Shown here: positions 13,433-57,312 of the stretch, in pieces
How positions within the stretch are numbered: position 1 is the stretch's first letter
Layout of the letters: every line of letters starts with the position of its first letter
DNA from: Candidatus Micrarchaeia archaeon
Lineage (GTDB): Archaea; Micrarchaeota; Micrarchaeia; Burarchaeales; Fermentimicrarchaeaceae
Reading direction: 5' to 3'
NCBI GenBank assembly: GCA_038871515.1
Contig: JAVZHX010000002.1
Coordinates: 141,815-205,814, forward strand
Length of the DNA stretch: 64,000 nucleotides
Notes under the pieces: generated by a model
Database searches by the model: none
The model's input: the letters and a program-made list of their open reading frames with translations, nothing else
Told to the model about the DNA's origin: nothing
Program-made: the position numbers and the translations under genes

Positions 13433-13459
13433 ACTATAAATACGGGGGGTTTATATAAA

Positions 13460-24917: not shown

Positions 24918-26147
24918 TTGTGCCCCGCCCATCCTTCTTTGCTTCCCATCCTTTTTAAACTTTGGGGTGGGAGGATGTGGTTTGCAAACTTGTTTGGAAA
25001 AGAGGGGGTGAAAATTGGGGAGAGAAGAAGCGAGCTTTCCCTGACAAACAAATCGTACATAACAGAATACCATCCTCATGTTAGGGTGAAGCCAGTGATG
25101 AAATGGGAGTGGAGGAAAGCGAATGGCAAATACACAATTGACTTCAGCAAGGAAGCGAACCCACATGTGAATATAAGTGGGATGAGCGGGTTTGGGAAGT
25201 CAACTCTCTGCAAGAAGTTGATTGATGAAATAAGAGGGAAGCTGAAGCTGCCTGTTGCAATCTTTGATGTCCACTCGGAATACGTTGAGCTCACAAAACA
25301 GCTTAACGGTGAAGTTCACTCAGCAAAGGAGTCAAGCATAAACATGTGGGAGCTTGATGGAATGGCTCCTGCTGAGAGAATTGCGGAGAACGTTGGAATG
25401 CTGAAGAGAATTTTGAAGTTGGGTGACATACAGGCATACAGCTTGCTTGTATCAGCTGAGAAAGCATACGAAAGAAAGGGAATAATTCAAAGTGAAAAAA
25501 GCAGTTGGAGTAGAGAAGCGCCAACAATGCAGGATGTTTATGAGTGCGTGCTTGAGCACAATAAAAAGCAGGGATACGCTGGGCTGAGCAAGAGGCTTTA
25601 CCCTCTGCTGATGAGCAGTGTTTTTTCAGCAGAAACGTCTGTTTCATTCAAAAAAGTTTTGGATGGGTTGAATGACTTCAGCATGGCTGAGCTGAGAAGC
25701 AGCGAAGCGCAGGCAGTTTTCATAGAAACTTTTCTCAGAAAGCTCTACTCATACATGTTAAGCCAGAAGCTGGCGGATGAGACGAGATTATTTGTTGTGA
25801 TTGATGAGGCGCACAGGGTTTGCATAGCAGACGGAAGCGAGCTCTCCCTTCCAGGAAGGATTGTTTCAGAAGGAAGAAAGTATGGGGTGGGAGTGATAAC
25901 AAGCAACCAGATGGTTAAAAGTATAGACAGGGCGATTGTTGCAAACTCCGCTGTCACGTTTGCGTTCTACCAGAGGGAGCCAGAGGAGTTTGACTACGTG
26001 GCGAAACTGCTTGCAGGTGGAGAGGAGTATGAAAGAGAGGAAGCAGTGAGAAGTATGCTCAGAAACCTCAAGCAGTTCCAGTGCATTGCTTTAACTTCAA
26101 GAGAGAGAGAACCAACGGTTGTTGAAATTCCCTCCTGGAAAAATTAG
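24918..26147 (+). CDS. P-loop ATPase of the VirB4/VirD4/HerA (DUF87, AAA-like) superfamily
   Basis: Walker A ISGMSGFGKST followed by AIFDVHSEY (cf. iDpkGEY of T4SS ATPases). Walker B RLFVVIDEAHR. Probable start at MWFANLF (about 24975). Confidence 0.65.
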   Translation: MCPAHPSLLPILFKLWGGRMWFANLFGKEGVKIGERRSELSLTNKSYITEYHPHVRVKPVMKWEWRKANGKYTIDFSKEANPHVNISGMSGFGKSTLCKKLIDEIRGKLKLPVAIFDVHSEYVELTKQLNGEVHSAKESSINMWELDGMAPAERIAENVGMLKRILKLGDIQAYSLLVSAEKAYERKGIIQSEKSSWSREAPTMQDVYECVLEHNKKQGYAGLSKRLYPLLMSSVFSAETSVSFKKVLDGLNDFSMAELRSSEAQAVFIETFLRKLYSYMLSQKLADETRLFVVIDEAHRVCIADGSELSLPGRIVSEGRKYGVGVITSNQMVKSIDRAIVANSAVTFAFYQREPEEFDYVAKLLAGGEEYEREEAVRSMLRNLKQFQCIALTSREREPTVVEIPSWKN

Positions 26148-32463: not shown

Positions 32464-32484
32464 CGTTATATACTATCTCTTTTT

Positions 32485-43256: not shown

Positions 43257-44060
43257 TCACCCTATAGCCTCAAGATACCCCTGCATAACCATTGAGTTGA
43301 GCAGGTGCTCCACTCTTGATTCTAATACGTTATATGTTTTGGCAAACTCGCTTATGTTTATCTCGTTATGATGGAGCTCAAGCCACTCCTGTATTTTCAC
43401 CTTCAGCACATCATCAGAGGGAGATTCAACCTGCTTCAACCTGAGAGTGAGCTCATCGTTCTTTGCTTTTAATTCAATTGCCTCGTTTGTCATCTTTGTG
43501 ATTGCTGCGTTGAGAGCTTCCACCTTCTTCTGCAAGGAGAGGAATTCGTTATTGAGTATGTCGTATTTTGAGAATATTTCATCATACGTTGATGCAGCAA
43601 ATTCAGTTATCTCTGTTAGCGCATTGCGCAGTATTTGGTAGAACTGCTTGTGATTCGTTTCATATTCATCTTCTATAAGAGTCATAACATTTAGGAAGTG
43701 CTTCAGCACATCTATCTTCCTTTTTCTTATGCTTATGCCAGGAACAACTGAGTAAACAACCTCAATCTCATTCGGGCGCAGGTAGATTAGTGAAAAGAGG
43801 TAGGGGTTCTTTTTTATATCCCTGCTCTCAACATTCAGCGCAGCAACGTAGTCTGATTCAACAGTTAGCATAAGGGAGCTTATTGATGAGAGGGATTCGG
43901 CAAGCTTTCTTAAATCGCCTTTTCTACTTGCAGGTAATTTGAAGCCGTAGATTTGAGGCGCGGGAGTTTCATCCTTAACCTCCTTCTTCTGCTCCTTTTT
44001 TTCAACTGGTTTTTCAGGTTTCTTTTCCATGTTTCTCAACCTTTGGGTAATATGATACAA
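43257..44060 (-). CDS. hypothetical protein with Lys/Glu-rich N-terminus and coiled coil
   Basis: 267-aa ORF (possible start at internal MEKKPEKP about 44030). Co-directional in array. Confidence 0.45.
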   Translation of the reverse strand: MYHITQRLRNMEKKPEKPVEKKEQKKEVKDETPAPQIYGFKLPASRKGDLRKLAESLSSISSLMLTVESDYVAALNVESRDIKKNPYLFSLIYLRPNEIEVVYSVVPGISIRKRKIDVLKHFLNVMTLIEDEYETNHKQFYQILRNALTEITEFAASTYDEIFSKYDILNNEFLSLQKKVEALNAAITKMTNEAIELKAKNDELTLRLKQVESPSDDVLKVKIQEWLELHHNEINISEFAKTYNVLESRVEHLLNSMVMQGYLEAIG

Positions 44061-44367
44061 GAGCGAGTAGCATGAATACCACTCCCATCACAATAGCGAG
44101 GAGTAATGATTGAATTGAGAAGGAAATGAGGAGGAGTAGCACTGCCATAAGAACTGCAAGCACTCCCCACGTCATAGCAGTTCTCTCAAACCTCCTTCTC
44201 TTCTCCTCAGCTTTTGGCAGACACTCCTTACAGACAACTAGAGTGTTTCCTGTGGAAGCGTGAAGTTTTTCCTTAATTTTTCTTATCGTATCTATAACTG
44301 GGTCATCCTCAACCCTCAATCCTTTCTTCTCCTTCTGGCATACAATGCAGACTGTTTTTCTTTTCAT
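44014..44367 (-). CDS. zinc-ribbon (CxxC...CxxC) protein with two C-terminal TM helices
   Basis: CIVCQKEKKG...CKEC followed by hydrophobic VLAVLMAVLLLLISFSIQSLLLAIVMGVVFMLLALV. Confidence 0.4.
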   Translation of the reverse strand: MKRKTVCIVCQKEKKGLRVEDDPVIDTIRKIKEKLHASTGNTLVVCKECLPKAEEKRRRFERTAMTWGVLAVLMAVLLLLISFSIQSLLLAIVMGVVFMLLALVSYYPKVEKHGKET

Positions 44368-44369
44368 AT

Positions 44370-44669
44370 CTATCCCTTCAGAACAACCTCCTGAATCTTC
44401 TTATCATCCAACCCCACTTTCTTCGCATCTGCTTTTGAGAAAATTGTTATGAGGGTTGTCTTCTCCACCCCAATATCCTCAAGAAAGTTTGAAATCTGAG
44501 TTCTGCTTGCCCCAAACCTCTCAAGCGTGATAACAAATGTGACAACATCCATTCGCTTATTTCTCTTGTCAAACATGCTCATAACTTCCTCAAGGTGGGC
44601 ATCGCTTAAACCAAATAGCTTCAGCCGCTTTCTCAGCTCGCTTTTATCAAACGTGTATGCCTTCGCCAT
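44370..44669 (-). CDS. small protein paralogous to the C-terminal domain of the adjacent ATPase
   Basis: YTFDKSELRKRLKLFGLSDAHLEEVMSMFDKRNKRMDVVTFVITLERFGASRTQISNFLEDIGVEKTTLITIFSKAD aligns colinearly with the last about 85 aa of the upstream ATPase (YSFEKNELKNKLTEFGMDDIKASELINIFSKGNKHMDILEFVKFLDKNDLARSNITSFLKVIGMEDAMIIDIFNRID). Confidence 0.5.
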   Translation of the reverse strand: MAKAYTFDKSELRKRLKLFGLSDAHLEEVMSMFDKRNKRMDVVTFVITLERFGASRTQISNFLEDIGVEKTTLITIFSKADAKKVGLDDKKIQEVVLKG

Positions 44670-47600
44670 CTACCCACCGGAATCTATTCTGTTGAATATA
44701 TCAATTATCATCGCATCCTCCATACCAATCACTTTAAGAAAAGAGGTTATATTTGATCTGGCCAAATCGTTTTTATCAAGAAACTTCACAAACTCAAGTA
44801 TATCCATATGTTTATTTCCTTTGCTGAAAATGTTTATCAATTCAGAAGCTTTTATGTCATCCATTCCAAACTCAGTTAACTTATTCTTCAGCTCATTCTT
44901 CTCAAATGAGTAATTCTTTGGAATTGTTTCATCCGCAAGCTGCGCCTGAGTTAGGATTGATTCAACGTCAAGGAAGTATTCCTCAAGAGGCTCCTCTCCA
45001 TGAACTCTCTCAAGCAGAAAAGTTTCAGGGAACTTTGTGCTTGTCTGGAATGCCATGTTAACCGCGCACTGCCCAACTCCAAACTTGCTTATCTCCTCCC
45101 TCATGTAATCACTGAAGTTCAACGAACCCTGTATGTAATCTAAGAATTTCTGGAATTTCACTCTGAGGATGAAGTTTGTTCCAACGTTTGAGAAGATTGC
45201 TTCGTGTATGTCTGTTGGGTTCTGCGAGGCGACTATGAGACCGAAGTTGTATTTTCTACCCTCTCTCACAATCATGATTGCATCAGACCTTTCATCCTTC
45301 GCAATCTTCCACGCCTCATCAAGAACAACAAGCACTCTCAAACCCTTTGTTGCAGCCCATCCGGCAGCCCTCATTTTTTCTTTTAGGAATTGGAGGATGA
45401 ACAAGCCGGCAAGCCCTCTCATTACCTCGTCAGGCAAACCGCTCATATCAACGTCAACCAGCCCAACTTCAGTAAGCTCCTCAAGCTTCACAGTGCTCTG
45501 CTGCGCGAAGTAATCCTCACCTGGCCTGCAGAAGTTTCTTAATCTGTAGATTGCATTCTCAAGCTCCGCAGGAAACTCATATGTTCCTGATTTAAGCTTA
45601 TCTTCAAGTATTTTCACAACATCTTTTAAAGTTGGTGGGGTGAGTGGTTTACCATCTGCTCCTTTCTGCTCAACTTCATTCAATTTGAAACCAGCTTCCT
45701 TATACGTTTCCTCAAGCGCTTCCTCGGTAAGCCTCTTCTGCTCCGGGTATTGCCCAATATCTGTAAGTATCTCCAACGTTCGTATAATTTGCTTAACCCT
45801 GTCAAGTGGTTTCATTCCTCCCAAATCCATTAAATTGATGAAATCCCCTTTTCCCAGTGCAATTATCCTTCCTCCTGCCTGCTTAACCCATGCCCTGTAT
45901 TCGCCTGCCCAGTCAATTATTATCGCGTTGCTCCCCCAAACGAAAGCAGCGCGTGAGAGGAAAGTTTTGACGAAGTAGGAGTTATGCACAAATACTCCGC
46001 CAAAGCCTGCAAGGAAAACTTCCTCATCAACCTCCAAATCATAAACGTAAGGTGAGTTGCTGTTTATTTTCTCTATGTTGCTTATTCTATCCCAAACTAT
46101 ATCCGAGTTGGAAAGTAGTTTCAGAAATTCAACATCATCCCAAATTGTTGGCTCAGATTCATCTAATGAAAGTTGATGGGATAACTGCGGTGCGTAACCT
46201 GCAAAATTGCTTTCAACCTCATTGAGCATACCCGCGAGGTATTCTCTTGAAGGAGTTCTGAGCCCAGCAGCTATTGAATAAGTCATCTGAGTTCGTCTTA
46301 ACACTCCGTTTTTGACAAGTCTATTCACTACTGAGCCTATCTCTGGGATGAGGTCAACATTGCTGTGTGCTTTTGTTTTTGCAAGCAGTTTCGCAAGCTT
46401 TTCGTTTTTTGTTTTAAATGCAAAACCTATCTCCGCAAATTTCTCCAAGTTTTTCTTTCCAGAAATGGTAATTCTGTAGTAATAAGAGCCTGAATGGGAT
46501 GAGTTGGTGGCACGTTTCCAATGAGAGTGAACACGGGCATTCACTCCAAATTTTAGGAGTAGGTAGAGTAGATCATTGGCGAGTTCCCTGGATTTTGTGG
46601 TTGCGCAGACAGCGTGATGCTCCACGCTTCCATCTCCTTCGAAATAACCTCTTAGATACTCGGATATAATTTTTCTTGAGCAGGAGAATATGAAGGAGGG
46701 AACTGCTCTCTCCCCAGATTTTTTGTGCAGCAGAAGAGATTTGATGAGCTGTATGAATGGCTCTGAAGCAATTCTTACTCCTTTTCTAACTCTAAAGGAA
46801 CTGCTTCCAACAGAACTAGCACACCTCTCTACTTCTGCAAGAAATTCCTTGTTGCAGTTGCTCACATGGATGAAGTCCTTTGCTGTGTTTCCCTCAGCAG
46901 TTATGAAGCCAAGCAACCTTGCCAGTTCTGGCGTTATTGGGAGTATTGCTGGCAAGTTTATTCTTCCGTTGCGTGCCCGTATTCTAAGTTTTTTCATCTC
47001 CTCCTTCTCCAGCGGGGAGGTTCTGAGCAGCTTTCTGAAGTAGCGAAGCGGAACTGCTCTCCCATGCTTGTAGAAGCGTATGTATTTATCATACTGCTCG
47101 TCTATTGGTAGGTTGGATTCTATTTTCTCCCAACTAAATCTCACAAAGTTCAACCCCGTTACATACAGCTTGCTTTCACCAAGCAAATCCAGGAGGTTTA
47201 GCTCATCAAGGTTTGAATTGGAGTTTATTGAACGAGGTGTTGGGACGAAATCGCCTGGCTGAACTTCACTGCTTTTCACGACTCTGATGTATCCATCCCT
47301 GAAAACAACTATATTGTGATCGCCAGTTGTCTTAACCTCCCTCCCACTGCTTGTTGTGAATTTATACATCTGCTCGGGAGCTTCCTTCCTGGCAGCAGTG
47401 ACAACCCTGCTCCATTTTGCTTTTAGTGTGCTGTCAAAAGTATAAACTTCAACATTTGGGTTTCTCACGCAGGTGCAACCATCAATTTCCTCCGCCCCCT
47501 CTTGCTCAATCAATGAGTCCACAAGCTCCCCTATTCTGACAAGCTTTTCATTTCCATCAACTCTCACCAGAACTTTTTCATCTGGTGATATCGACTTGCC

Positions 47601-47813
47601 CGCGCCGGTTATCCCAACTATGCAGATATGTGGGTTTGTTAAATACTGATAGGACCAGTTAAAAGGAACGTGAAATATTTTTGTTTTTCCAATGTAGATT
47701 GAGTTGGATGGGTCAAGCGCGATGAACTCTGCTGGCGGTTCAGGAGGCCTTACAAACAACGGCCTCTTTGCAAGCTCCTTGCTCATTATGGATTGAACGC
47801 GTATTTTTCCCAT
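44670..47813 (-). CDS. VirB4/TraC/CedB-like P-loop ATPase interrupted by an intein
   Basis: Extein: Walker A CIVGITGAGK|S split by the intein. After splicing SYFVKTFLSRAAFVWGSNAIIIDWAGEYRAWVKQAGGRII (cf. iDpkGEY...gG motif of VirB4/TraG ATPases). Walker B LRVLVVLDEAWKI (DEAW is the VirB4-type Walker B). Confidence 0.75.
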   Translation of the reverse strand: MGKIRVQSIMSKELAKRPLFVRPPEPPAEFIALDPSNSIYIGKTKIFHVPFNWSYQYLTNPHICIVGITGAGKSISPDEKVLVRVDGNEKLVRIGELVDSLIEQEGAEEIDGCTCVRNPNVEVYTFDSTLKAKWSRVVTAARKEAPEQMYKFTTSSGREVKTTGDHNIVVFRDGYIRVVKSSEVQPGDFVPTPRSINSNSNLDELNLLDLLGESKLYVTGLNFVRFSWEKIESNLPIDEQYDKYIRFYKHGRAVPLRYFRKLLRTSPLEKEEMKKLRIRARNGRINLPAILPITPELARLLGFITAEGNTAKDFIHVSNCNKEFLAEVERCASSVGSSSFRVRKGVRIASEPFIQLIKSLLLHKKSGERAVPSFIFSCSRKIISEYLRGYFEGDGSVEHHAVCATTKSRELANDLLYLLLKFGVNARVHSHWKRATNSSHSGSYYYRITISGKKNLEKFAEIGFAFKTKNEKLAKLLAKTKAHSNVDLIPEIGSVVNRLVKNGVLRRTQMTYSIAAGLRTPSREYLAGMLNEVESNFAGYAPQLSHQLSLDESEPTIWDDVEFLKLLSNSDIVWDRISNIEKINSNSPYVYDLEVDEEVFLAGFGGVFVHNSYFVKTFLSRAAFVWGSNAIIIDWAGEYRAWVKQAGGRIIALGKGDFINLMDLGGMKPLDRVKQIIRTLEILTDIGQYPEQKRLTEEALEETYKEAGFKLNEVEQKGADGKPLTPPTLKDVVKILEDKLKSGTYEFPAELENAIYRLRNFCRPGEDYFAQQSTVKLEELTEVGLVDVDMSGLPDEVMRGLAGLFILQFLKEKMRAAGWAATKGLRVLVVLDEAWKIAKDERSDAIMIVREGRKYNFGLIVASQNPTDIHEAIFSNVGTNFILRVKFQKFLDYIQGSLNFSDYMREEISKFGVGQCAVNMAFQTSTKFPETFLLERVHGEEPLEEYFLDVESILTQAQLADETIPKNYSFEKNELKNKLTEFGMDDIKASELINIFSKGNKHMDILEFVKFLDKNDLARSNITSFLKVIGMEDAMIIDIFNRIDSGG
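45981..47594 (-). other. intein (about 538 aa) with LAGLIDADG homing-endonuclease domain inserted in the ATPase P-loop
   Basis: Block A S-ISPDEKVLVRVDGNEKLVRIGELVD right after GAGK. Block B VKTTGDHNIVV (TxxH). Two LAGLIDADG-type motifs LLGFITAEGNT and YLRGYFEGDGSV. Blocks F/G VYDLEVDEEVFLAGFGGVFVHN followed by +1 Ser that completes the Walker A (GAGK-S). Confidence 0.7.
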
Positions 47814-47822
47814 AAATATAAA

Positions 47823-48662
47823 TTATATTGCTCCCTTTAAATCTTTAGGTGTTGGCGGGAATGCAACCTCCCATTCAAAGCATCTTTTCATATCCTCTCC
47901 TGTGAGAGTTGTTATCTCTATATTCAGCGTGTTTGAGAAGTTCGCTTTGAGTTCATTTGCCTGTGCTTTTACAGTTGCTATTGCAGCTTCTGGGCTTACA
48001 CCAAGCGCGGTGGTTGTTATGTACATAATTGTTCCCATAGGCTTCTCTCCGGATGATAATCTGGCGAGCATCTCGTTCTGCCTTGCAACTTCCCTCTCCC
48101 ATTTGTCTATCATTATTGGGTCAGGGCGCGGTTTCTCCCTCTCCCTCCCGAGCCTCAGCTGTGCTGCAGCTCTTTTTGTTTCAATATCCTCCCTGAATTT
48201 AAGAATGTCTTCTATGTATGTCATTATGCAAAACTTAAATGGGAATTTTATGCTTGCAACTGCCCTCTCCCATAGATCCATATAGGAAGCCTGCTCCTCC
48301 TGAACGCCAACAGCTGCGGATTCATAGAACCTGGCGTAGAGGAACATTGTTGCGTAATACAAACCACCAACGTTTTTTATAATCACATCCTGCGAAGGAG
48401 GTATTTCAAACCCACCTGCACGTATTTCGGTTACCTTTAAAATTTTTGTTATTAACGGTAGAACCATAAAGCCAACTTTGTAGATTAAAACATCCAGCAC
48501 TGCGAAGAATATGCTGGCAAGCACTGCGATAATTCTGAAATCGCCTAAACCAGGTGAGGTTAAGCCAATCATCAAACATAGGAAGCAGATTCCGAGCGCT
48601 AGAGCTGTGAAAGTCTTTTCGTTCATTCCTATTGGGATTCCTCCAACTGGCATTTCAATCAC
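47823..48662 (-). CDS. membrane protein, family B (2 TM + soluble domain), paralog 1
   Basis: Two N-terminal TM helices then conserved domain (MFLYARFYES...MDLWERAV...TGEDMKRCFEWEV). Clear paralog of the next gene. Confidence 0.5.
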   Translation of the reverse strand: MIEMPVGGIPIGMNEKTFTALALGICFLCLMIGLTSPGLGDFRIIAVLASIFFAVLDVLIYKVGFMVLPLITKILKVTEIRAGGFEIPPSQDVIIKNVGGLYYATMFLYARFYESAAVGVQEEQASYMDLWERAVASIKFPFKFCIMTYIEDILKFREDIETKRAAAQLRLGREREKPRPDPIMIDKWEREVARQNEMLARLSSGEKPMGTIMYITTTALGVSPEAAIATVKAQANELKANFSNTLNIEITTLTGEDMKRCFEWEVAFPPTPKDLKGAI

Positions 48663-49630
48663 ACCGATGGAGCTTCCTCCCTTATTAGGGGTGGCGCCAC
48701 ATACTCAACCTCAAAACATCTCTTCATATCCTCTCCAGTAAGAACTGCAACCTCGGCGTTTAGCGTTGTTGCAATTGTTGATTTTATCTCGTTTGCCTGG
48801 TTCTTCACAGTTGCAAGTGCCATTTCTGGTGTAGGGCCGGAAGCAGTTGTCATAACATACGTCATCTGCGCGATTGGGTTTTCCCCTGTTGATAGTTTTG
48901 AGAGCAAGTTATCCCACATCGCAACTTCTCTCTCAAGCGTTTCAATTTTCTGCTTATCTTCCTGGGGCTTTCCTCTCTCATCTGCAAGCTTCAGCTGAGC
49001 CTCTGCTTTTTTGTTCTCAACTATCGCTCTGTATTTTGATAAATCCTTAACATAGGAGATTAAAACGAATTTTGTAACCAGCTTCATGCTTGAAACTGCT
49101 CTCTCCCAAAGCTCCATAAAAGCAAACTTCTCCTCCTCACTTTTCTCTGTTGTTGATTCGTATATTTTAACTTGCAGAAACATGGATGCATAATACGTGT
49201 TGCCAATTTTTTTGATAACTGCGTCCTGTGTTGGTGTTATCTCATATGGCTCCTCAATTACATCTATCACCCTAACCTTTTTTGTTAAGAGAGGAACAAT
49301 CCAGTAACCATATTTGAATGTTATAAGCCCAACTGTTGATAGGGCAGCTGCAAGCGCTACAACAATTGGGGTGAGCCCACCGAATAAAGCACCACCTACA
49401 AATACTAGCACTACTAATGCTCCTGAAACGGCAAAGCAGATTAGTGCGATGTTTCTCTCAGCTGGCATAACACCACTTACAGAAGCCTTACTATTCCCTG
49501 CCCTATCTCGGTTATGTCTGCACCGAGTAATGGGGAGATTGTTCTTATAAATGTGAATGTCACAATGAGAACGAGCATTGGGTAATAGAATATTTTTAAC
49601 CAGACAGAGGATAACCAGCCCAGTATCCAT
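48659..49630 (-). CDS. membrane protein, family B, paralog 2
   Basis: Shares MFLQVKIYES...MELWERAV...TGEDMKRCFEVEY with the previous gene. Probable start at MPAERN (about 49468) directly after the upstream stop. Confidence 0.5.
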   Translation of the reverse strand: MDTGLVILCLVKNILLPNARSHCDIHIYKNNLPITRCRHNRDRAGNSKASVSGVMPAERNIALICFAVSGALVVLVFVGGALFGGLTPIVVALAAALSTVGLITFKYGYWIVPLLTKKVRVIDVIEEPYEITPTQDAVIKKIGNTYYASMFLQVKIYESTTEKSEEEKFAFMELWERAVSSMKLVTKFVLISYVKDLSKYRAIVENKKAEAQLKLADERGKPQEDKQKIETLEREVAMWDNLLSKLSTGENPIAQMTYVMTTASGPTPEMALATVKNQANEIKSTIATTLNAEVAVLTGEDMKRCFEVEYVAPPLIREEAPSV

Positions 49631-50481
49631 GCAGAAGCAGCTCTCAGCTGGGGTGAGAGAGCTCTTTCGGTTGCAACATCAGATGCGCTTTCAAAATCGC
49701 TTTTGCATGCGCCAAACTCATCAAGATTGAACCCACCAATGCTGTTTCCAAGTTCATTTGCTTTATTTCTAACTTCAGATGGGTTTTCTGACATCATGGC
49801 AACAAACGTGAACATAATTGGATAGACGATTGACAACCCTATTCCAATTGCAATGAGCAAACCACCTGCACCTCTTGTCCATGGGAATATTCTCAATAAT
49901 ACTCCTGCGGGTATGAAAACTGTGAAGCCGGTGTTGTAGAAAAGGTGTATGAGAGCTCTCTGAAAAGCTGTGAGGATGGCTGCCATAGTCACAACATACG
50001 CTTGGAAGTGGAAGTGCTCGCTTACTGGTGATAGAATTAGCTCGAAGGGAGAGAAGTCTAACCCAGCTGCATTGAAGTAAAATGTGAATGTTGTGAGAAA
50101 CTCTATGATGAAGTTTATTCTGTAAACGTTGATATATATTGAATAAAGCGAGCTCATAACCCCGTCTAAGTAAACATATGCTTTTTTGTACGGGTTCATC
50201 CCACCGATCATTGTCTGAAATCCTTCGTTCAGCATGACATCCATCATAAAGATTAAACCACCAACAATCACTGCGCTTGCCAGCGCTTGATAAAATTCTG
50301 ATTTTGCCCATTTTCTCAATCCATCCAAATTCAGGGCAATGCCAAGCATATAAGCTAATGCGACAACAAGGAAAGCGGTTACAACTGCAGTTAATGCAAC
50401 TGGCTGCCAAACATTCCAAACTCCTTCAACTGCAACTGGAGTTGCACCCCAGGGTTCCGTCCACCAAATTATCTGCATCAT
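49477..50481 (-). CDS. polytopic membrane protein, family A paralog (334 aa)
   Basis: N-terminal LAYMLG...WAKSEFYQALASA motif. Core LLRIFPWTRGAGGLLIAIGIGLSIVYP. C-terminal GADITEIGQGIVRLL. Confidence 0.55.
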   Translation of the reverse strand: MMQIIWWTEPWGATPVAVEGVWNVWQPVALTAVVTAFLVVALAYMLGIALNLDGLRKWAKSEFYQALASAVIVGGLIFMMDVMLNEGFQTMIGGMNPYKKAYVYLDGVMSSLYSIYINVYRINFIIEFLTTFTFYFNAAGLDFSPFELILSPVSEHFHFQAYVVTMAAILTAFQRALIHLFYNTGFTVFIPAGVLLRIFPWTRGAGGLLIAIGIGLSIVYPIMFTFVAMMSENPSEVRNKANELGNSIGGFNLDEFGACKSDFESASDVATERALSPQLRAASAWILGWLSSVWLKIFYYPMLVLIVTFTFIRTISPLLGADITEIGQGIVRLL

Positions 50482-50489
50482 TTTTTCAC

Positions 50490-51521
50490 CTATATCAATC
50501 TTGTGAGGTTGCTCACATCTACCTCCTCACCCAACGCATACGAAAGTCCTTTCACAAAAGATATTAAGATCATGAACATAACAAGTGGCATAAAGATTGC
50601 ACCAACAATTGTTTTTCCTATGAAGCCAACGAAGAACTCGGAAAGGGGATTACCTGTGAACCAGCTTGGGTCGGTTGGACTGAGACCTGATTCCTTGAAT
50701 GAGTCTGACATACCTTCATAGCTCATCTGCACATCTCCGAGCACTGCGCCGTAGAAGAGAACTGCAAGAAGAGGGTAAAAGAAAAAGAAGCCAATTGCTA
50801 ATGCTATCAAACCTCCTCCAAACCCTCTTGTTGCACCAAAAGATCTTAGAAGAACACCTATTGGGAAGAGGATGACGAATAAGCTTTCCATCATTTTCAG
50901 CAGAACCATCTGGGTTAGCACCATTATTGCTGATGTCATGAGAACAATCATTGCCATGGTGAGGCTGCTTGATATGTCGCTGAAAACCGCCAGCGGGCTG
51001 ATCATCACGCCGACTCCTCCAGGTGCTTTTCCAATCGTCATTGTTGCAACGGACGACATAACTGCATTCAACCCAGCTACTGTCACGTAGCCAGTCATTA
51101 TTGTTGAGTAGAAGTCACTCAAATAACCGAATGCAACGTTTATCATGTTGCAGTTATCCCCTGTACAGCCCGTGTCTATCCCCAAAGTGTTCAAATCAAG
51201 CGAGCAGAGGAAGGAAACAAACCCAATTACAAAAATAGTTATTGCCATAGCGAGTATTGCCTCCTCCATCTGCTCCTTTGCCCACAGCGTAACTTTTCGG
51301 TGAACAAGCACGTGCCCCAACGTATAAACAAACGCTGCAACTAGGAAAACAGTTGAGGCAGCAAGGATGGATAAACTCTGCCAATTCCCCCAGTAGGTTT
51401 CGAACTCGGAGCTCACTGCTCCTGAACTGCATGCTGGCTTTACTGTTAATGTCCCTCCAGTAGCGGTACAGCCAAACCACATCAGCGAGAGCAGTAACAA
51501 ACCAATTATGTATTTTTTCAT
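50490..51521 (-). CDS. polytopic membrane protein, family A paralog (343 aa) with signal peptide
   Basis: WAKEQMEEA, LLRSFGATRGFGGGLIALAIGFFFFYP, C-terminal EEVDVSNLTRLI. Confidence 0.55.
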   Translation of the reverse strand: MKKYIIGLLLLSLMWFGCTATGGTLTVKPACSSGAVSSEFETYWGNWQSLSILAASTVFLVAAFVYTLGHVLVHRKVTLWAKEQMEEAILAMAITIFVIGFVSFLCSLDLNTLGIDTGCTGDNCNMINVAFGYLSDFYSTIMTGYVTVAGLNAVMSSVATMTIGKAPGGVGVMISPLAVFSDISSSLTMAMIVLMTSAIMVLTQMVLLKMMESLFVILFPIGVLLRSFGATRGFGGGLIALAIGFFFFYPLLAVLFYGAVLGDVQMSYEGMSDSFKESGLSPTDPSWFTGNPLSEFFVGFIGKTIVGAIFMPLVMFMILISFVKGLSYALGEEVDVSNLTRLI

Positions 51522-52450
51522 ATCAACCCACTCAGTCCACCTAAATCTATTTCGGCACCGAATATTTTTGCAAGCTCATTTATCAACACCAATGTGACTA
51601 TGAGGTTGAACATTGGCATGAATATAACAAATATGAATAAATAAAGAATTGCTGGATAGGCAACAAACTTTATAAGAGAGAGGAACATATTCCCACCAAA
51701 GTCAGGTGTGTTTGTTGTGCAGCTCATAGGATCATCACGACAGCTGCTTCCCAACCCAAGCGCATTGGCGAAGTTACGAGCACCTCCGACAAGTGCCAAT
51801 GGTTTTATTGTTTCGTCGTATATTGCCTTGTCAAACACCCAGAGGAAGGGATAGAAAATGTAGAAACCAAGGAAAACTGCTATGATTGCGCCTCCTGCAG
51901 GTCTGCTGAATGGAAATGCTCTGAGTGCTATTCCTATTGGAAGGAGGATTTGGAACTGTGTTTTTATGAATGTGAGAAAGGAACCCTGGCCGAGCAGAAG
52001 CCCAATCCCACCGAGCACTGCTTCCATTCCAAGCGACAGCATTGAGGTGACTGGAGCCAAACCAACAAATGGGTTTATGTTGAAACCTGTTTGAGTGGGC
52101 ATTGCTTTGAAGACAAGACTCTGTAGCATCCCAAAAAATGCATCCATCTCAACAATTGCAATGAAGAAACTCATCATCGAAGTGGTGAGCATGCTTATGT
52201 AATTTGATACAATTCCAAATGGATCCGCTCCATATAGACTTACCATAGTAGCGTCAATTGTTGATATAAAGGAGAGAAGCAGAACTGCAAGCAAACCACT
52301 GGCTATTGCTTGGTAAAGCTCATCCTTTGCCCAAGCCTGAAGCTTTGGCAGATGGAAGCCCATCCCAACCATATAAGCAAGCGCAACAAAACCAAACATC
52401 AGTGAGATAACCGCAAAGGTTATTCCATACCATTCAGCCCAGCTTACCAT
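51518..52450 (-). CDS. polytopic membrane protein, family A paralog (310 aa)
   Basis: WAKDELYQAIASG, ALRAFPFSRPAGGAIIAVFLGFYIFYP, C-terminal GAEIDLGGLSGLI. Confidence 0.55.
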   Translation of the reverse strand: MVSWAEWYGITFAVISLMFGFVALAYMVGMGFHLPKLQAWAKDELYQAIASGLLAVLLLSFISTIDATMVSLYGADPFGIVSNYISMLTTSMMSFFIAIVEMDAFFGMLQSLVFKAMPTQTGFNINPFVGLAPVTSMLSLGMEAVLGGIGLLLGQGSFLTFIKTQFQILLPIGIALRAFPFSRPAGGAIIAVFLGFYIFYPFLWVFDKAIYDETIKPLALVGGARNFANALGLGSSCRDDPMSCTTNTPDFGGNMFLSLIKFVAYPAILYLFIFVIFMPMFNLIVTLVLINELAKIFGAEIDLGGLSGLI

Positions 52451-52458
52451 TTTTTCAC

Positions 52459-53634
52459 CTACAATATTCTTGTAAGACCGGCAATTTCAACATCTCCTCC
52501 AAGCTGCGGGGAGAGAACTTTGATGAACGAAATTGTGACAAGAATTATAAGCAGTGGCAGGAATGTGCCTGGCACCATGAGGTAACCTACTGTTGGGAGA
52601 ACGCCATTGTAAGGAGTCATCATCCCCGCGTATACGTCTGAGCCGTATCCGCCACACAAATGTTTGCTCTCTCCACTTTCAACGATTGTTGTGCAAGAGG
52701 AACCAGGGCAGTCTGCATTACTAACGCACCCATTTTTGAAAAGGAATGATGGATCCCAGTAGTTTGCAACTGCTTGAGGAAGCCCTGGGATTACGTAAAC
52801 TACTAAACCTGCTACTCCAGTGCAGAAGGGTCTGGTTCCATCTCCTTCAGGAAGAAAGTTGCCAGTGCAAGCCCACGTGTTTGGGTCGTTACCTGTGTAA
52901 TAGAAAGTGTGCGCATTGAAAGTGAAGTAGCTTTCAAGCATCACGTAAAGTAATGGGTAGATTGTGTAAAGAGCAAGCGCTATTGCTATAAGTAAACCGC
53001 CAACTCTCCTTGAGAAAAAGAAAGTTCTCAAGATGATACCCATCGCAAGCAAGCTTGGGAAGAGGGCTTGCTTTATGAAAGTTAACATGTACCACTGTGC
53101 TATGATGCTTGAGAGCATTGGAAGCAGAACTGAGAAAGTGTATTCAAGCGAGTCAAGCACCATACTTCCCCCTTTCCAAAGATACCATGAGAAACCGAAT
53201 GCGGTTCTGCATTGCCCTATGATGCACAAACCACCTTCTGGGCCAACAGTGAAATCATAGAATTTTCCCATATTTGTTATCATACCCACTCTTATACTCA
53301 AATTGAATATGTGCTCAACTTGCTTTGTTACATTTAGTTTCAGTTTGTTGAGTATTCCAATTGCAACATCAACATGGTCTTGCCCAGGAGTGCATTTTCC
53401 AGTAACAGTACAGGAGAAGTTGGCGATTGCAGTTACTATTATAATGGCTGCTCCAACAATAAATGCGCTTGCAAGTGCTTGGTAAAGCTCATCCTTTGCC
53501 CAAACTTCCAACCTGCGTATACCAAAAACGTGGGAGAGCGCATAGGCGAGAGCAGCAAAAAGAATGGAAAGCACTGCTGCAGCTACTGCAACTGACTGCC
53601 AACTGCTCCATAAAGTTGCAAATGCACTACTCAT
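52459..53634 (-). CDS. polytopic membrane protein, family A paralog (391 aa) with Cys-rich extracytoplasmic insert
   Basis: WAKDELYQALASA, ILRTFFFSRRVGGLLIAIALALYTIYP, insert NGCVSNADCPGSSCTTIVESGESKHLCGG, C-terminal GGDVEIAGLTRIL. Confidence 0.55.
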   Translation of the reverse strand: MSSAFATLWSSWQSVAVAAAVLSILFAALAYALSHVFGIRRLEVWAKDELYQALASAFIVGAAIIIVTAIANFSCTVTGKCTPGQDHVDVAIGILNKLKLNVTKQVEHIFNLSIRVGMITNMGKFYDFTVGPEGGLCIIGQCRTAFGFSWYLWKGGSMVLDSLEYTFSVLLPMLSSIIAQWYMLTFIKQALFPSLLAMGIILRTFFFSRRVGGLLIAIALALYTIYPLLYVMLESYFTFNAHTFYYTGNDPNTWACTGNFLPEGDGTRPFCTGVAGLVVYVIPGLPQAVANYWDPSFLFKNGCVSNADCPGSSCTTIVESGESKHLCGGYGSDVYAGMMTPYNGVLPTVGYLMVPGTFLPLLIILVTISFIKVLSPQLGGDVEIAGLTRIL

Positions 53635-55526
53635 TGAAATACCTCTTCAAAATTCTGGCTTAAAATCCTTGCTGCATTCTTTACGAACGTGAGAGTTATA
53701 ACTAAATTTAGAGTTGGGAGGAATACTGCTTGTGGGATGAGAAAAGCTGCCTCCTTCATAAGGTGGTACAATGCTATCAGTGCAAGCGGTATAAATGGTG
53801 AAACTACGCCCGTGAGGAAGGATGGGACAAACGCTTCAACAAGAGGTAGTGAAATTTGGGGTATCACGGTGTCAACAATCATCTTATTCATAACAAAACA
53901 GAGCGGATACACAATATACAAACCAAGCGCTAGAGCGATAAGCATTGCACCTGCTTTTCTTAGGAATGGAAATATTCTGAACAGAATCCCAAGCGGGAGC
54001 ATTATTCTGAAAGCAAATGCTTGTATAATTGATAAACCTATATCTTGAACCATAAGGCTTGCTGAAATGCCCGCAAAGAAAGAGTAGATGTAGTCAAAAC
54101 AAACTGCAACTGCTCTCAAACCTGCGTTTGGCATGAAACCAGTTCCAAGTCCTCCTGGCCCAACCATCATCTTATAACCCGCAACCATCTGGCAGATGAT
54201 GCTGTACTGGAAAGCAGTTGTTGCGAGGTTGAGTGTTTTATCCCATACCAAACCATTGAGGTAGGTATGGGCTATATTGAATGGGTCATCTCCTGCCAGA
54301 GTTATGAAAACATTGCAAATAACGCTGAGCACAAGTATTAACAGTATCATAATCGCAACAGAGATTATTATTTGGTAAAATTCGTCCTTCACCCAAACTT
54401 CCCACTCTTTCTTCACAAGTATTTTTGACACCATATACACAACTGCAAGCAAAAGCAGAATTGTTCCCAACCCCATAAACGCAAGGTAGATCCACCCCCC
54501 GCTCCACCACTCATCGCTGATGCAGCAGGGGGGGTAAGGTGGTGTTGGAGGGCATGCGATGCTTGTTGAAGGAGGGGCTGCCGGTGCAACAACCGTATAT
54601 GTAACAGAGACGCTTCTGACATTCCCCTGGCTGTCTGTTGCTGTCACTACCATTGTGTGGGTACCGACAGAGGTGGAGTAACCTGTATGAGAGACGGTTG
54701 GGTTCGGATCGCAGTTATCCGTTGCTGAGTAGGATGGGAGAGGCACCATACCTGCCATATATGTTGCACCATCTGTAGGGGAGAGTATAGTTATTGTTGG
54801 AGCCTGAGAGTCTTGGGATTGAATTTCAAGTTTATACGTCACTCCTGTTGGGTTCTGCGTGAGAGTTGGGTCGTCTGGTTCATCCAAATCATAATTTCTT
54901 ACCAGGATGTCCAGTTCATTCTGTCCGTCATGTATGAAATTTTTGACATCAAATGTGTAGATTGTTGTCCAGGGTTGGTCTCCGGGTCCCCAGGTGGCAA
55001 CTCCGGTTATTTCATCAACAGTCGCGACTAATGCACCGTTTATTCTTATCTGAAATGCATCATCTCCAGTTATTTTCAAAGTTGCAGATGTTACGGAGCA
55101 GACATCAAAACATTTCTTGAACTCCCTCCACGTATCTCTGTGGAAGTCAAGGGAGTTGTTGTATTCATATGATATCCAATGTATTGTTGGGTCGTTGTCG
55201 ATATGAGGCCTTGTTGCTTCGGTATCACAAGCGGCAACAACCGCATCCTTCCACGGAGTCCAAGTTGATGGGTCGGACACATTTTGATTGTCAAGCTCCT
55301 CAGCATGTCTCACTATATCTTTAGTATCACTTACCATCGCAGCTGAAGGAAGGCGCATATCCGCAACTCTACATGTTCCAACTCCACCACCACCGCCTCC
55401 TCCTCCACCACCGCCATTTGCAGCTATCCAGGAGAAAACAGGTGTTTGCATTAAAAGTAATACAAGAAGGCATTTCCAATAACTTACTCTGAATGCTCCC
55501 CCCAAGTATTTTTTTCTGAGTTTCAT
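53631..55526 (-). CDS. family A paralog (631 aa) fused to N-terminal secreted Ig-like module via Gly11 and Pro-rich linkers
   Basis: Signal peptide, GGGGGGGGGGG, Ig/HYR-like segment (DNCDPNPTVSHTGYSTSVGTHTMVVTATDSQGNV), Pro-rich APAAPPSTSIACPPTPPYPPCC, then WVKDEFYQIIISVA and ILFRIFPFLRKAGAMLIALALGLYIVYP core. Confidence 0.55.
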   Translation of the reverse strand: MKLRKKYLGGAFRVSYWKCLLVLLLMQTPVFSWIAANGGGGGGGGGGGVGTCRVADMRLPSAAMVSDTKDIVRHAEELDNQNVSDPSTWTPWKDAVVAACDTEATRPHIDNDPTIHWISYEYNNSLDFHRDTWREFKKCFDVCSVTSATLKITGDDAFQIRINGALVATVDEITGVATWGPGDQPWTTIYTFDVKNFIHDGQNELDILVRNYDLDEPDDPTLTQNPTGVTYKLEIQSQDSQAPTITILSPTDGATYMAGMVPLPSYSATDNCDPNPTVSHTGYSTSVGTHTMVVTATDSQGNVRSVSVTYTVVAPAAPPSTSIACPPTPPYPPCCISDEWWSGGWIYLAFMGLGTILLLLAVVYMVSKILVKKEWEVWVKDEFYQIIISVAIMILLILVLSVICNVFITLAGDDPFNIAHTYLNGLVWDKTLNLATTAFQYSIICQMVAGYKMMVGPGGLGTGFMPNAGLRAVAVCFDYIYSFFAGISASLMVQDIGLSIIQAFAFRIMLPLGILFRIFPFLRKAGAMLIALALGLYIVYPLCFVMNKMIVDTVIPQISLPLVEAFVPSFLTGVVSPFIPLALIALYHLMKEAAFLIPQAVFLPTLNLVITLTFVKNAARILSQNFEEVFQ

Positions 55527-56503
55527 ACCAATCTAGCCAGCCCAAACAAATCCGGATCCCCTCCAAGCGCACCTGCAAGGGAACGGATTGATGATAGAGT
55601 GATTATAACAACTATCACGAATAATGCTGAGATTATCACAAAGTTTTGCATGAGCGCAGTTATTAGATTGATTATAGAGGTAATATCCCAAGAGACAGCT
55701 CCAAAAGTTGCGTTTCCTGCGAAATCAAATACGTTGCCCGGGTCTCCCGGTGCAGTAACTGCTCTGTAGCCTAAGTAAACATTCCAGCTATAGATTATTG
55801 CAAGTGGGTATATAATGTAAGCACCAATTGCAATTGCAATTATTGTCCCACCAGCAACTCTTGTTGTTGGGAATGTTCTCATCAAAACTCCAAGAGGAAG
55901 GAAATACTTCAGCATTGTGTATCTGAAGAAATCAAGAAGCACCTGCTCTGCTAGAAGCACAGCAAGCATTGCGGATATAACATTGAAAACAGTGTTTATT
56001 CCAGTTGTCACTGGTCCAAGCCCAGCCCAAGGTGAAACAAACGAGCCGAAGCGAATGGTAACGATTGTTGGGAGAGGAGGCGGTAGAATTGGTATCGGGA
56101 TGAAAAAACTGAACATAAGAGTTGAAATGGCGCTTATTAGGAAGTTTGCAAGGAAAATTGAGAGCCATATGCTCATTGTCTCAAGCAGCATCATATCGAG
56201 AGCATTATGCGCCACCTCAAATGGGTTGCCTCCCGCCAGGTTTATTGAAATTCCAAAAAGAATGTTAACAAGTAGGATAAGAACACCGACAATCACTCCA
56301 CTTATGAATATCTCATACATCTCCGTCTTCGCCCACTCCTCAAGCTCCCTGTAGTGAAACCCAATTGCAACAGCATAAGCTAAACCAATTATTCCAAAAG
56401 AAACAGCCAATGCAGTTAAAGCAGTTGTCTCCCACCCACCTAGGAATATGCCACCGCTTAACTGTGCTTGAGTTATCTGAAGAATTGCCAAAGGGAGAGG
56501 CAT
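55523..56503 (-). CDS. polytopic membrane protein, family A paralog (326 aa)
   Basis: WAKTEMYEIFISG, VLMRTFPTTRVAGGTIIAIAIGAYIIYP, C-terminal GGDPDLFGLARLV. Confidence 0.55.
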   Translation of the reverse strand: MPLPLAILQITQAQLSGGIFLGGWETTALTALAVSFGIIGLAYAVAIGFHYRELEEWAKTEMYEIFISGVIVGVLILLVNILFGISINLAGGNPFEVAHNALDMMLLETMSIWLSIFLANFLISAISTLMFSFFIPIPILPPPLPTIVTIRFGSFVSPWAGLGPVTTGINTVFNVISAMLAVLLAEQVLLDFFRYTMLKYFLPLGVLMRTFPTTRVAGGTIIAIAIGAYIIYPLAIIYSWNVYLGYRAVTAPGDPGNVFDFAGNATFGAVSWDITSIINLITALMQNFVIISALFVIVVIITLSSIRSLAGALGGDPDLFGLARLV

Positions 56504-56567: not shown

Positions 56568-56987
56568 TCAGCAGGGGGTATAAGCCATTGTTCCCCCAGA
56601 CATCCGTGTGAATATATCTACTAGAATTGGCGCTAGAACTGCAATGAATATACCTAAAATCCCTCCGACAAGGAGAGACATTGCCCAGCCCTGTGCCTTT
56701 GCTCTCATCTCAGCACCAAATACCTGGCCTGCTGCGTATGCCAACCCTGCGAACAGGAACATTATCAGCGCAAGCGTTGGCAGCACTGTATAAACCAGCA
56801 CTTGGAAGTCACATAGTGCTTTTCTTATGGTTGAAGCCATACCTGTGGTGCTTGTTGCCGAAACTAATGGTAGCAATAGAAGGAGGAGCACAATTGTTTT
56901 GTTTTTCATTCCAACCACCAATAATTTATGGAAAATAAAAAATAAAAAGGGAGATGGTCGTTTAGCAGGCTGCTTCTGCCATTTCAC
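56568..56987 (-). CDS. VirB2/TrbC-like pilin candidate (paralog 1)
   Basis: Probable start at MKNKTIVLLLLLLPLVSA (about 56909). Long signal peptide, helix 1 (VLVYTVLPTLALIMFLFAGLAYAAG), short charged loop (QVFGAEMRAKAQGW), helix 2 (AMSLLVGGILGIFIAVLAPILV). Two-helix hairpin topology of conjugative pilins. Confidence 0.5.
   Translation of the reverse strand: MKWQKQPAKRPSPFLFFIFHKLLVVGMKNKTIVLLLLLLPLVSATSTTGMASTIRKALCDFQVLVYTVLPTLALIMFLFAGLAYAAGQVFGAEMRAKAQGWAMSLLVGGILGIFIAVLAPILVDIFTRMSGGTMAYTPC
56661..56760. repeat. approximately 100-bp near-identical repeat, copy 1 (core of pilin paralog 1)
   Basis: ccctccgacaaggagagacattgcccagccctgtgcctttgc...gcctgctgcgtatgccaaccctgcgaacaggaac recurs at about 57054-57153 with only a few mismatches. 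Confidence 0.6.
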
Positions 56988-57312
56988 CCATTGACATGCT
57001 TATGAAGATGCCAACGAGCACTGGCGCAAGCACTGCAAGCACAATGCCGATTATCCCTCCGACAAGGAGAGACATTGCCCAGCCCTGTGCCTTTGCCTTT
57101 GTCTCAGCACCAAATGCCTGGCCTGCTGCGTATGCCAACCCTGCGAACAGGAACAGAATCAGGGATAGGGTTGGAAGCACTCCAGTCACTAGCACCTTGA
57201 AGTAGCATAGACCGGATGCTATTGCTGCTGCCATTGAACCAACTCTGGTTGCTGAAACCACTCCCATGGCTAACAAAGCCAGCAAAGTCGTGTACTTTGC
57301 TTTCATTTTCAA
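56962..57312 (-). CDS. VirB2/TrbC-like pilin candidate (paralog 2)
   Basis: MKMKAKYTTLLALLAMGVVSA signal peptide, FKVLVTGVLPTLSLILFLFAGLAYAAG, QAFGAETKAKAQGW loop, AMSLLVGGIIGIVLAVLAPVLV. First gene of the 31-kb minus-strand array. Confidence 0.5.
   Translation of the reverse strand: MKMKAKYTTLLALLAMGVVSATRVGSMAAAIASGLCYFKVLVTGVLPTLSLILFLFAGLAYAAGQAFGAETKAKAQGWAMSLLVGGIIGIVLAVLAPVLVGIFISMSMGEMAEAAC
57054..57153. repeat. approximately 100-bp near-identical repeat, copy 2 (core of pilin paralog 2)
   Basis: Same sequence as 56661-56760 (about 95% identity by eye). Flanks diverge. Confidence 0.6.

Follow-up and report, generated by a model that had tools for sequence, protein, structure and literature searches.

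What kind of apparatus is built by six consecutive and mutually related membrane proteins whose genes stand between pilin genes and an ATPase gene on the chromosome of a micrarchaeon? This question is raised by a 64,000-nucleotide stretch of DNA (hereafter the window, meaning the whole stretch that was analysed) from a Candidatus Micrarchaeia archaeon (assembly GCA_038871515.1, contig JAVZHX010000002.1, positions 141,815 to 205,814 of the forward strand). An initial annotation, made from the letters of the sequence alone, had drawn attention to six paralogous genes at 49477-56503 and had compared them to the VirB6 expansion in the Rickettsiales type IV secretion system (T4SS). DPANN archaea, Micrarchaeota included, rely on physical contact with a host, and we know of essentially no genes assigned to building the machinery for this contact and exchange. 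Cryo-electron tomography of a cultured Micrarchaeon revealed tubes running between cells and, in the envelope of the symbiont, a docking structure; no genes were assigned to either (PMC11329633). We propose, with a probability of roughly 0.6, that the six proteins are distinct, non-interchangeable platform or channel subunits of a chromosomal T4SS-derived apparatus and are the functional counterpart of VirB6, CedA and TedA.

Six membrane proteins in a fixed order

All six genes lie on the minus strand. In gene order they are paralogue 1 (55523-56503; 326 aa, ending in the tail GGDPDLFGLARLV), paralogue 2 (53631-55526; 631 aa, with an extended N-terminus and without the canonical C-terminal tail), paralogue 3 (52459-53634; 391 aa, with Cys-rich insertions in outside loops), paralogue 4 (51518-52450; 310 aa, the minimal member and the one whose structure was modelled), paralogue 5 (50490-51521; 343 aa, with an N-terminal lipoprotein-like signal ending in LMWFGC) and paralogue 6 (49477-50481; 334 aa, the most conserved member, 74-84% identical to close orthologues). 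Adjacent genes either overlap by 4 nt or are separated by 8 nt, and the array therefore reads as one operon. Every open reading frame (ORF) was found where the initial annotation had placed it, and each of the six proteins matched the hidden Markov model (HMM) of the family with E values of 1e-75 to 1e-86, far beyond chance, confirming six consecutive paralogous polytopic membrane proteins. Pairwise identity among the six was 23-31% over full length.

We compared the array with those of seven related Micrarchaeota loci, namely Candidatus Fermentimicrarchaeum limneticum Sv326, four further close relatives and two divergent loci. In 42 of 42 comparisons a gene found its best match in the window paralogue of the same position, with a best bit score about 1.2 to 10 times that of the runner-up. 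This correspondence held even where the orthologues are only 29-41% identical and the ATPase is 75% identical; for paralogue 1 the positional orthologues in the seven loci are 31-77% identical. Exactly six tandem members were present in every complete array (the window and loci L001, L002, L005-L007, L009, L020, L023, L024 and L025), and the arrangement in L025 is the same as in the window. One member is split or truncated in L005 (7333-8341, position 6) and in L009 (6260-7335, position 5), which may reflect a frameshift or assembly error rather than loss. The tails and core variants are specific to each position and are conserved across genera, with GGDPDLFGLARLV as the tail at position 1, LGGDVEIAGLTRIL at position 3, FGAEIDLGGLSGLI at position 4, LGEEVDVSNLTRLI at position 5 and LGADITEIGQGIVRLL at position 6. 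The canonical tail never occurs at position 2 and is absent from the position 2 orthologues in all seven other loci. The 42/42 positional orthology indicates that the six are distinct subunits rather than expanded copies. The sixfold tandem amplification first suspected was thus not borne out: the six are ancient, positionally fixed orthologous groups.

The shared motifs were examined within the window proteins and across an alignment of 127 family members. The N-terminal LAY...WAKxExYQ motif, first described for all six proteins, is present in most of them but not in all (LAY in four and WAK in five of the six). The core L-R-x-F-x3-R-x2-G-G...Y-P held, with G205, R209, F211, R215, G218, Y232 and P233 invariant among the window proteins. 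In the numbering of the 310-aa protein, G173, R183 and P201 are invariant in the 127 members, and Q155, R177, G186 and A191 are conserved in at least 90%. A C-terminal tail of the form G-[GAE]-[DE]-h-[DE]-h-x-x-L-x-[RG]-[LI]-[ILV] is carried by five members and is missing from the 631-aa protein alone, as had been noted.

Several members carry additional segments. Paralogue 2 consists of a signal or anchor segment, a Gly run of exactly 11 residues (38-48), about 290 aa of secreted beta-rich modules, a Pro-rich linker ahead of the first transmembrane (TM) helix, and the family core. The Gly11 and Pro-rich linkers are as first described, and a secreted beta-rich module is indeed present, but its Ig-like label is backed by weak matches only (Big_13, E 0.078; Bac_rhamnosid_N, E 0.035; an NCBIfam rhamnosidase N-terminal region, E 7.6e-5; a bacterial Ig domain in the PDB, E 0.41). 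This N-terminal extension was found only in the window and in Sv326 (protein length 882-902 aa), the proteins at the other loci being 302-375 aa long. The Cys-rich loop reported for the 391-aa paralogue 3 was also confirmed. The protein has 10 Cys (residues 75, 81, 137, 142, 256, 271, 303, 309, 314 and 327), of which six lie in the long loop that precedes the last TM helix; the count is 10 in five of six close orthologues (11 in Sv326) and 13 and 7 in the two divergent loci. An N-terminal Cys is common across the family, whose N-terminal segments contain 1.34 Cys on average. Large extra domains are specific to particular lineages and always sit at the N-terminus or within the last long loop, and the last outside loop ranges from 38 to 163 aa across the family. 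In L023 (10001-16092) one protein of 1281 aa has an insertion of about 950 aa in the last outside loop and another of 749 aa has an N-terminal extension of about 400 aa; the insertions are always at predicted outside positions.

A search with the family profile returned at least 3,123 representative clusters at 50% identity (E <=1e-3), 543 of them with E <=1e-30. Every member named to an organism belongs to Micrarchaeota or Micrarchaeia, the metagenomic clusters giving few names, and the same is true of the named homologues of the neighbouring bitopic protein. The related loci were collected with ATPase patterns rather than with the six-paralogue family itself, and the 18 loci found in this way come from Micrarchaeota only; the L024 array was assigned to Micrarchaeia through its FtsZ. 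Two of the six window proteins are identical or near-identical to the Candidatus Micrarchaeia entries QXF56_04350 and QXF56_04370. Scans of the six proteins or the 127 members against Pfam, NCBIfam, PHROGs and PDB sequences assigned no family, and those against Pfam, NCBIfam and PHROGs gave not even weak TrbL, T2SSF or permease matches. The core motif likewise has no counterpart in the libraries scanned, in agreement with the initial annotation, which could not place it in a known family. The sole PDB match of the deep profile was to the TM region of an ABC transporter (E 0.021, about 100 residues covering the variable loop and last helix), which is not significant. That the family might turn out to be a well-characterised transporter class with an unrelated context elsewhere had been considered from the start, and no transporter family was found in Pfam or NCBIfam. 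Literature searches returned no description of the six-paralogue family, of the locus, or of a T4SS-like system in Micrarchaeota.

The pilin-like hairpin and the operon partners

The two genes upstream of the array each encode a small protein in which a signal peptide precedes a two-helix hairpin, consistent with the pilin genes first placed next to it. Pilin 1 (56962-57312, minus strand, 116 aa) is VirB2/TrbC-like and matches Pfam T4SS_pilin at E 0.028. Pilin 2 (56568-56909, minus strand, 113 aa; the ORF is listed from 56987, with Met27 at 56909 as the probable start) is a paralogue 65% identical to pilin 1, has sub-cut-off matches to T4SS_pilin (E 4.5e-4) and TrbC (E 8.9e-4), and has orthologues in all group-A loci. 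The Pfam matches below cut-off reach 20.7 and 19.9 bits. A profile of 10 pilin orthologues had VirB2 of plasmid R388 (TrwL) as its sole PDB match below E 1, at 0.048, and aligned to TrwL in hhalign with a probability of 29.5% (P 5.7e-4). The pilins have a conserved Cys about 10 residues past the predicted cleavage site and a second at or next to the C-terminus. This pair suggests a predicted head-to-tail disulfide, reminiscent of the cyclisation that TrbC/VirB2 pilins undergo.

The N-terminal part of the six-paralogue family resembles these pilins. When the pilin profile was aligned to the 127-sequence family profile with hhalign the probability was 91.1% (P 1e-6) over 51 columns, covering TM1, loop and TM2 of both. 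Reversed profiles gave at most 0.5%, and 30 block-shuffled pilin profiles gave at most 1.2%, with a top score of 17.5 compared to 43.8 for the real profile. Against the pilin, the bitopic family's TM hairpin from the same organisms reached 0.5% and the R388 protein TrwI 0.3%, and the other TM helix pairs of the six-paralogue family gave no match to the pilin. Taken singly, all six positional groups aligned to the pilin, in every case at one and the same N-terminal position (scores 14.8-31.8), and the pilin HMM directly matched one family member at E 8e-4. Together these comparisons indicate homology between the neighbouring pilins and the two-helix hairpin at the N-terminus of the family. Homology between the N-terminus and the pilin has been published for CedA/CedA1, and for Agrobacterium tumefaciens VirB2 and VirB6 it was reported more weakly, with a probability of 66.6% (E 0.001) over 63 columns, corresponding to VirB6 residues 24-90 (PMC9905601). 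With a pilin-like N-terminus, further TM helices and this genomic position, the six proteins share the architecture that defines the VirB6/CedA class.

Hydropathy across the family showed four strong TM helices and a weakly hydrophobic centre. Lys and Arg are enriched in loop 1 (WAKxE), in the LRxFxxxRxxGG loop, which has a fixed length of 25-26 aa, and in the C-tail, while Cys residues occur only in the N-terminus, in loop 2a and in the last long loop (loop 4), and several members have a signal peptide or secreted domain ahead of TM1. Taken together these features predict a topology with the N-terminus outside, the Arg-rich loop inside, the variable loop outside and the C-terminal tail inside. 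The plan of each subunit is then a pilin-like N-terminal two-helix hairpin, a weakly hydrophobic centre, the Arg/Gly loop, a TM helix, a Cys-containing outside loop, a last TM helix and a tail. An AlphaFold2 model of the 310-aa member (pLDDT 75) gave an all-helical bundle with one beta-hairpin, and no internal repeat was found within the family.

Downstream of the array and the bitopic genes lies the gene of a VirB4/HerA-class ATPase (44670-47813, minus strand, 1047 aa), composed of a 509-aa extein and an intein. The extein scored above the Pfam cut-offs for AAA_10 (50.4 bits, cut-off 27.5), DUF87 (50.5 bits) and P-loop_TraG (42 bits, cut-off 25.8), and its matches in the PDB were HerA and, over residues 59-332, the C-terminal domain of VirB4 (4ag5). 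Its plasmid relatives include the VirB4-like CD1110 family, which is of MPF_FATA type, and TraC. By these matches the ATPase is of VirB4/HerA class, with DUF87/HerA scoring as well as AAA_10. The 538-aa LAGLIDADG intein (45981-47594, minus strand; Intein_splicing E 1.7e-20, LAGLIDADG_3 E 8.7e-24) sits in the Walker A motif, after GAGK and before S. Its boundaries were set by alignment to the intein-free orthologue of L002, and the gene and match lengths at the other orthologous loci leave no room for an intein.

Between ATPase and array lie two genes for bitopic proteins. Bitopic protein A (48659-49468, minus strand, 269 aa) has two N-terminal TM helices and an alpha/beta cytoplasmic domain, and bitopic protein B (47823-48662, minus strand, 279 aa) is its paralogue with 39% identity. 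Protein A was listed as a 323-aa ORF (48659-49630) overlapping paralogue 6 by 154 nt. We placed its start at Met55 (49468), 8 nt past the stop of paralogue 6, because the orthologues are 264-275 aa long and the overlap then vanishes. The ATPase appears to be without the VirB4-type N-terminal domain, which makes it reasonable to read the two bitopic proteins as a possible split counterpart of VirB3 and the VirB4 N-terminal domain. Array, pilins and VirB4-class ATPase occur in the same operon in the window and in nine other loci.

Candidate function and competing explanations

The likeness to VirB6 first suggested for the array stands as far as the T4SS-type context, the VirB6/CedA slot, the pilin-like hairpin and the predicted N-out/C-in topology are concerned; membership in the VirB6/TrbL family and tandem amplification are not supported. 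In the mechanism that we propose, the six proteins would assemble into one hetero-oligomeric platform or channel in the inner membrane. Their pilin-like hairpins would take over pilin subunits from the membrane and start the pilus, and the Arg-rich loops together with the position-specific C-tails would serve as docking sites for the hexameric ATPase and for both bitopic proteins. Outside loops and domains that vary between lineages would face the cell envelope or the host. Such a machine may move macromolecules between the symbiont and another cell, most likely DNA by analogy with Ced and Ted, with DNA standing as the default guess for the substrate.

Several observations weigh against this proposal. 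The six proteins had no match to PF04610 (TrbL/VirB6) at E <=1, nor had the 127 members at E <=0.1, and the family profile aligned to the profile of R388 TrwI with a probability of 0.2%, the latter being a narrow profile of 20 TrwI relatives that are all at least 50% identical. The absent Pfam match and the hhalign result speak against membership of PF04610. In fold searches TrwI/VirB6 was the longest match only, and the match was not significant. The alignment to the pilin requires the deep 127-sequence profile, as shallower family profiles of 6 or 18 sequences aligned to the same region at only 11-13%. In L024 (10001-18641) the six-gene array is directly followed by a PF00437 ATPase (T2SSE; VirB11/PilB-class) in place of the bitopic-VirB4 module. 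Ten GTDB loci, whose ATPase is 62-69% identical and which have one bitopic gene and, where the upstream sequence suffices, one pilin gene, had no array within the flank examined around the ATPase module (at most 10 kb; several contigs end sooner). L023 carries a module of this type with its array on the opposite strand, 5 kb from the pilin-bitopic-ATPase module and separated from it by ribosomal and transcription genes, so in such genomes the array can sit elsewhere. Physical linkage of array and ATPase module is therefore not obligatory. In the window, neither a relaxase nor a clear coupling protein was found.

Some of these points would equally be expected of a Micrarchaeota-specific complex that is unrelated to VirB6 and CedA and was recruited to the pilin/ATPase module. 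Its only tie to T4SS would then be the pilin-like N-terminal hairpin, acquired for example when a pilin gene fused with that of an unrelated membrane protein, and its job might be envelope or S-layer anchoring or pilin insertion. Such an origin would explain why VirB6 homology is undetectable and fold matches are non-significant, why none of the libraries searched holds a counterpart of the invariant LRxFxxxRxxGG...YP core, and why the array can sit apart from the ATPase module. However, Ced, Ted and bacterial VirB6 are mutually near-unrecognisable by sequence (PMC9905601), so that a missed similarity is expected here. In addition, a pilin-like N-terminus followed by further TM helices is the architecture published for CedA and VirB6, and the conserved module offers no other polytopic candidate for the VirB6 role. 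We consider an unrelated complex unlikely.

A different machine would be an archaeal type IV filament apparatus, with the six proteins as platform analogues of PilC, FlaJ or TadC and with an ATPase of PilB/FlaI class, as the T2SSE-type gene directly after the L024 array might suggest. PF00437 also covers VirB11 of T4SS, this adjacency was seen in one locus only, and at 10 loci the array shares an operon with a VirB4-class ATPase. None of the 127 members showed a T2SSF/FlaJ signal in Pfam, and the neighbouring pilins, which resemble VirB2/TrwL, start with a cleavable signal peptide of the ordinary kind rather than of class III and continue with a two-helix hairpin, making a filament platform improbable. 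The ABC-transporter match in the PDB (E 0.021, about 100 residues) would suit a solute transporter or permease family that merely adjoins secretion genes, but the match is non-significant and limited to the variable loop and last helix, and no transporter family of Pfam or NCBIfam was recovered. With gene number (six), gene order and the association with pilins and ATPase all conserved, and with an N-terminal hairpin that is pilin-like, a permease is very improbable. We find it just as hard to credit that the genes are redundant, recently amplified copies diversifying an exposed surface for antigenic or host-range variation. The variable outside loops (38-163 aa in the last loop), the 950-aa insertion in L023 and the Ig-like modules in the window could be read in this way, but the idea is contradicted by the 42/42 positional orthology, the conserved position-specific tails, a copy number that is always six and paralogues that are only 23-31% identical.

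If the six proteins are T4SS-derived platform subunits, the locus would be a concrete and conserved candidate for the contact and exchange machinery and, following Ced and Ted, a third T4SS-derived system in archaea. To build a T4SS inner-membrane platform from a fixed set of six different VirB6-type subunits, each with a pilin-like module, would be an unusual solution. It would have implications for the extraction of pilins from the membrane and for their nucleation, and it would support the proposed common origin of VirB2 and VirB6. A match between six subunits and a hexameric ATPase is an attractive thought. Taken further, one copy of each protein could form a pseudo-sixfold hetero-hexameric ring, maybe in gene order, that matches the ATPase, with the hairpins templating a lipid-bound tube of VirB2 type, made from the two pilins, that serves as a conduit for the uptake of DNA or other macromolecules from host archaea. 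We regard this extended model as speculative and doubtful. If it were true, the symbiont-side structures seen by cryo-electron tomography in the cultured Micrarchaeon would have their genetic basis in this machine, which would also be an archaeal counterpart of the Patescibacteria T4SS, some components of which are reported to be essential for epibiotic growth.

Chromosomal setting and known systems

Downstream of the ATPase the operon continues on the minus strand with small genes that recur in other loci. A 99-aa protein (44370-44669) is a lone copy of the ATPase C-terminal domain, corresponding to its last ~90 residues (BLASTP 38%, E 4e-21), and a gene of 98-99 aa directly follows the ATPase in most loci. 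The next gene (44014-44367) encodes a 117-aa protein with two CxxC pairs, resembling a zinc ribbon, and a C-terminal TM segment; the slot is held in the other loci examined by a TM protein of 119-183 aa (mostly 125-170). It is followed by a coiled-coil protein of about 260 aa whose start is uncertain (43257-44060; 245-276 aa at the same place elsewhere) and, at the end of the module, by an 806-aa protein with two TM segments and no Pfam match (40644-43064; counterparts 773-913 aa). Two giant proteins of 2700 aa and 1787 aa, both without a Pfam match, are encoded beyond it (27100-40587, minus strand). The 2700-aa protein has a signal peptide, a composition rich in Ser, Gly, Thr and Pro, and a C-terminal TM anchor, and the 1787-aa protein has N-terminal TM segments and is rich in Lys, Glu and Leu. 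Large or giant ORFs likewise follow the module in L010, L023 and L025, and the giant proteins may be part of the system.

The surrounding chromosome carries the aspartyl-tRNA synthetase gene (aspS), a PMT-family glycosyltransferase gene and genes of the archaeal mevalonate pathway. The complete chromosome of Sv326 has the same genes in the same order, including the aspS and PMT flanks, and housekeeping genes also flank L023 and L024. No tRNA or Rfam element was found in the window, no integrase or relaxase was seen among the ORFs scanned, and no relatives of the ATPase were found in IMG/VR viral contigs. The synteny with Sv326, the lack of tRNA or Rfam elements and the lack of IMG/VR relatives show the locus to be chromosomal and vertically inherited with no obvious mobile element. 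An origin from a virus or mobile element was rejected on the IMG/VR result.

Further features were observed elsewhere in the window. A second ATPase of DUF87/HerA type (409 aa) with a sub-threshold match to the coupling-protein domain TrwB_AAD_bind is encoded on the plus strand, adjoining a TnpB-like protein with a Cas12f1-like TNB domain (E 3.8e-22; 24918-26147 and 22975-24027 for the pair). The mevalonate-pathway genes (1624-2670 and 12353-17820, minus strand) encode a GHMP/mevalonate kinase, Aconitase X, a UbiD-like decarboxylase, an amino-acid-kinase-fold (IPK-like) protein and an FMN-dependent dehydrogenase, a set that is noteworthy in a DPANN genome.

The rvh T4SS of Rickettsiales, with which the array was originally compared, has four to five tandem VirB6 paralogues with large extensions, and these are bona fide bacterial members of PF04610. 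The two systems share a conserved tandem array of divergent VirB6-type genes, large lineage-specific domains, an obligately host-associated organism with a reduced genome and the duplication of other components. The copy number differs, however; here a minimal core of about 300 aa is retained in each copy, and all seven loci compared have the same gene order. Compared to VirB6/TrbL proteins in general (PF04610; TrwI of R388, PDB 7o3v and 8rt9), the six proteins are likewise polytopic, N-out/C-in by prediction and provided with a sizeable outside loop, and they are encoded between pilin and ATPase genes. TrwI is reportedly a homopentamer, whereas here there are six different subunits. The VirB2-like N-terminal segment reported for A. 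tumefaciens VirB6 is a further likeness. The differences are the lack of a PF04610 match in the 127 members, the hhalign probability of 0.2%, the non-significant fold scores, and the invariant LRxFxxxRxxGG...YP core, which is absent from VirB6.

The closest parallels in design may be CedA from the Sulfolobales Ced system and TedA from the Thermoproteales Ted system, VirB6-like membrane proteins of chromosomal archaeal T4SS-derived DNA-import machines (Beltran et al. 2023, PMC9905601). By their published description these systems are likewise archaeal, chromosomal and not borne on mobile elements, the gene of a polytopic protein accompanies those of a VirB2-like pilin and a VirB4-like ATPase, the N-terminus of the membrane protein is homologous to the cognate pilin, and the components elude ordinary sequence searches. 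In contrast to the single gene of CedA or TedA, the locus described here has six fixed paralogues, two pilins, two bitopic partners, an ATPase apparently without the VirB4-type N-terminal domain, linked giant surface proteins, and an ultra-small DPANN symbiont as its host organism. Giant proteins with VirB4-like ATPases have been discussed for Nanohaloarchaeota (PMC10266531). The MPF_FATA-related T4SS of Patescibacteria (candidate phyla radiation) is also vertically inherited and chromosomal in an ultra-small epibiotic lineage and also has VirB2-like pilins and VirB4, while its VirB6 homologues are extremely divergent or undetectable in some classes (PMC12102498). The window ATPase in turn finds MPF_FATA-type VirB4 (the CD1110 family) among its plasmid relatives. 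That system differs in being bacterial and in having a single-copy VirB6 where one is found, and a six-paralogue array has not been reported from it. On our best reading the platform class is thus the known one of VirB6 and CedA, and what is new is a T4SS-derived system, so far found only in Micrarchaeota, in which the VirB6-type component is a fixed set of six.

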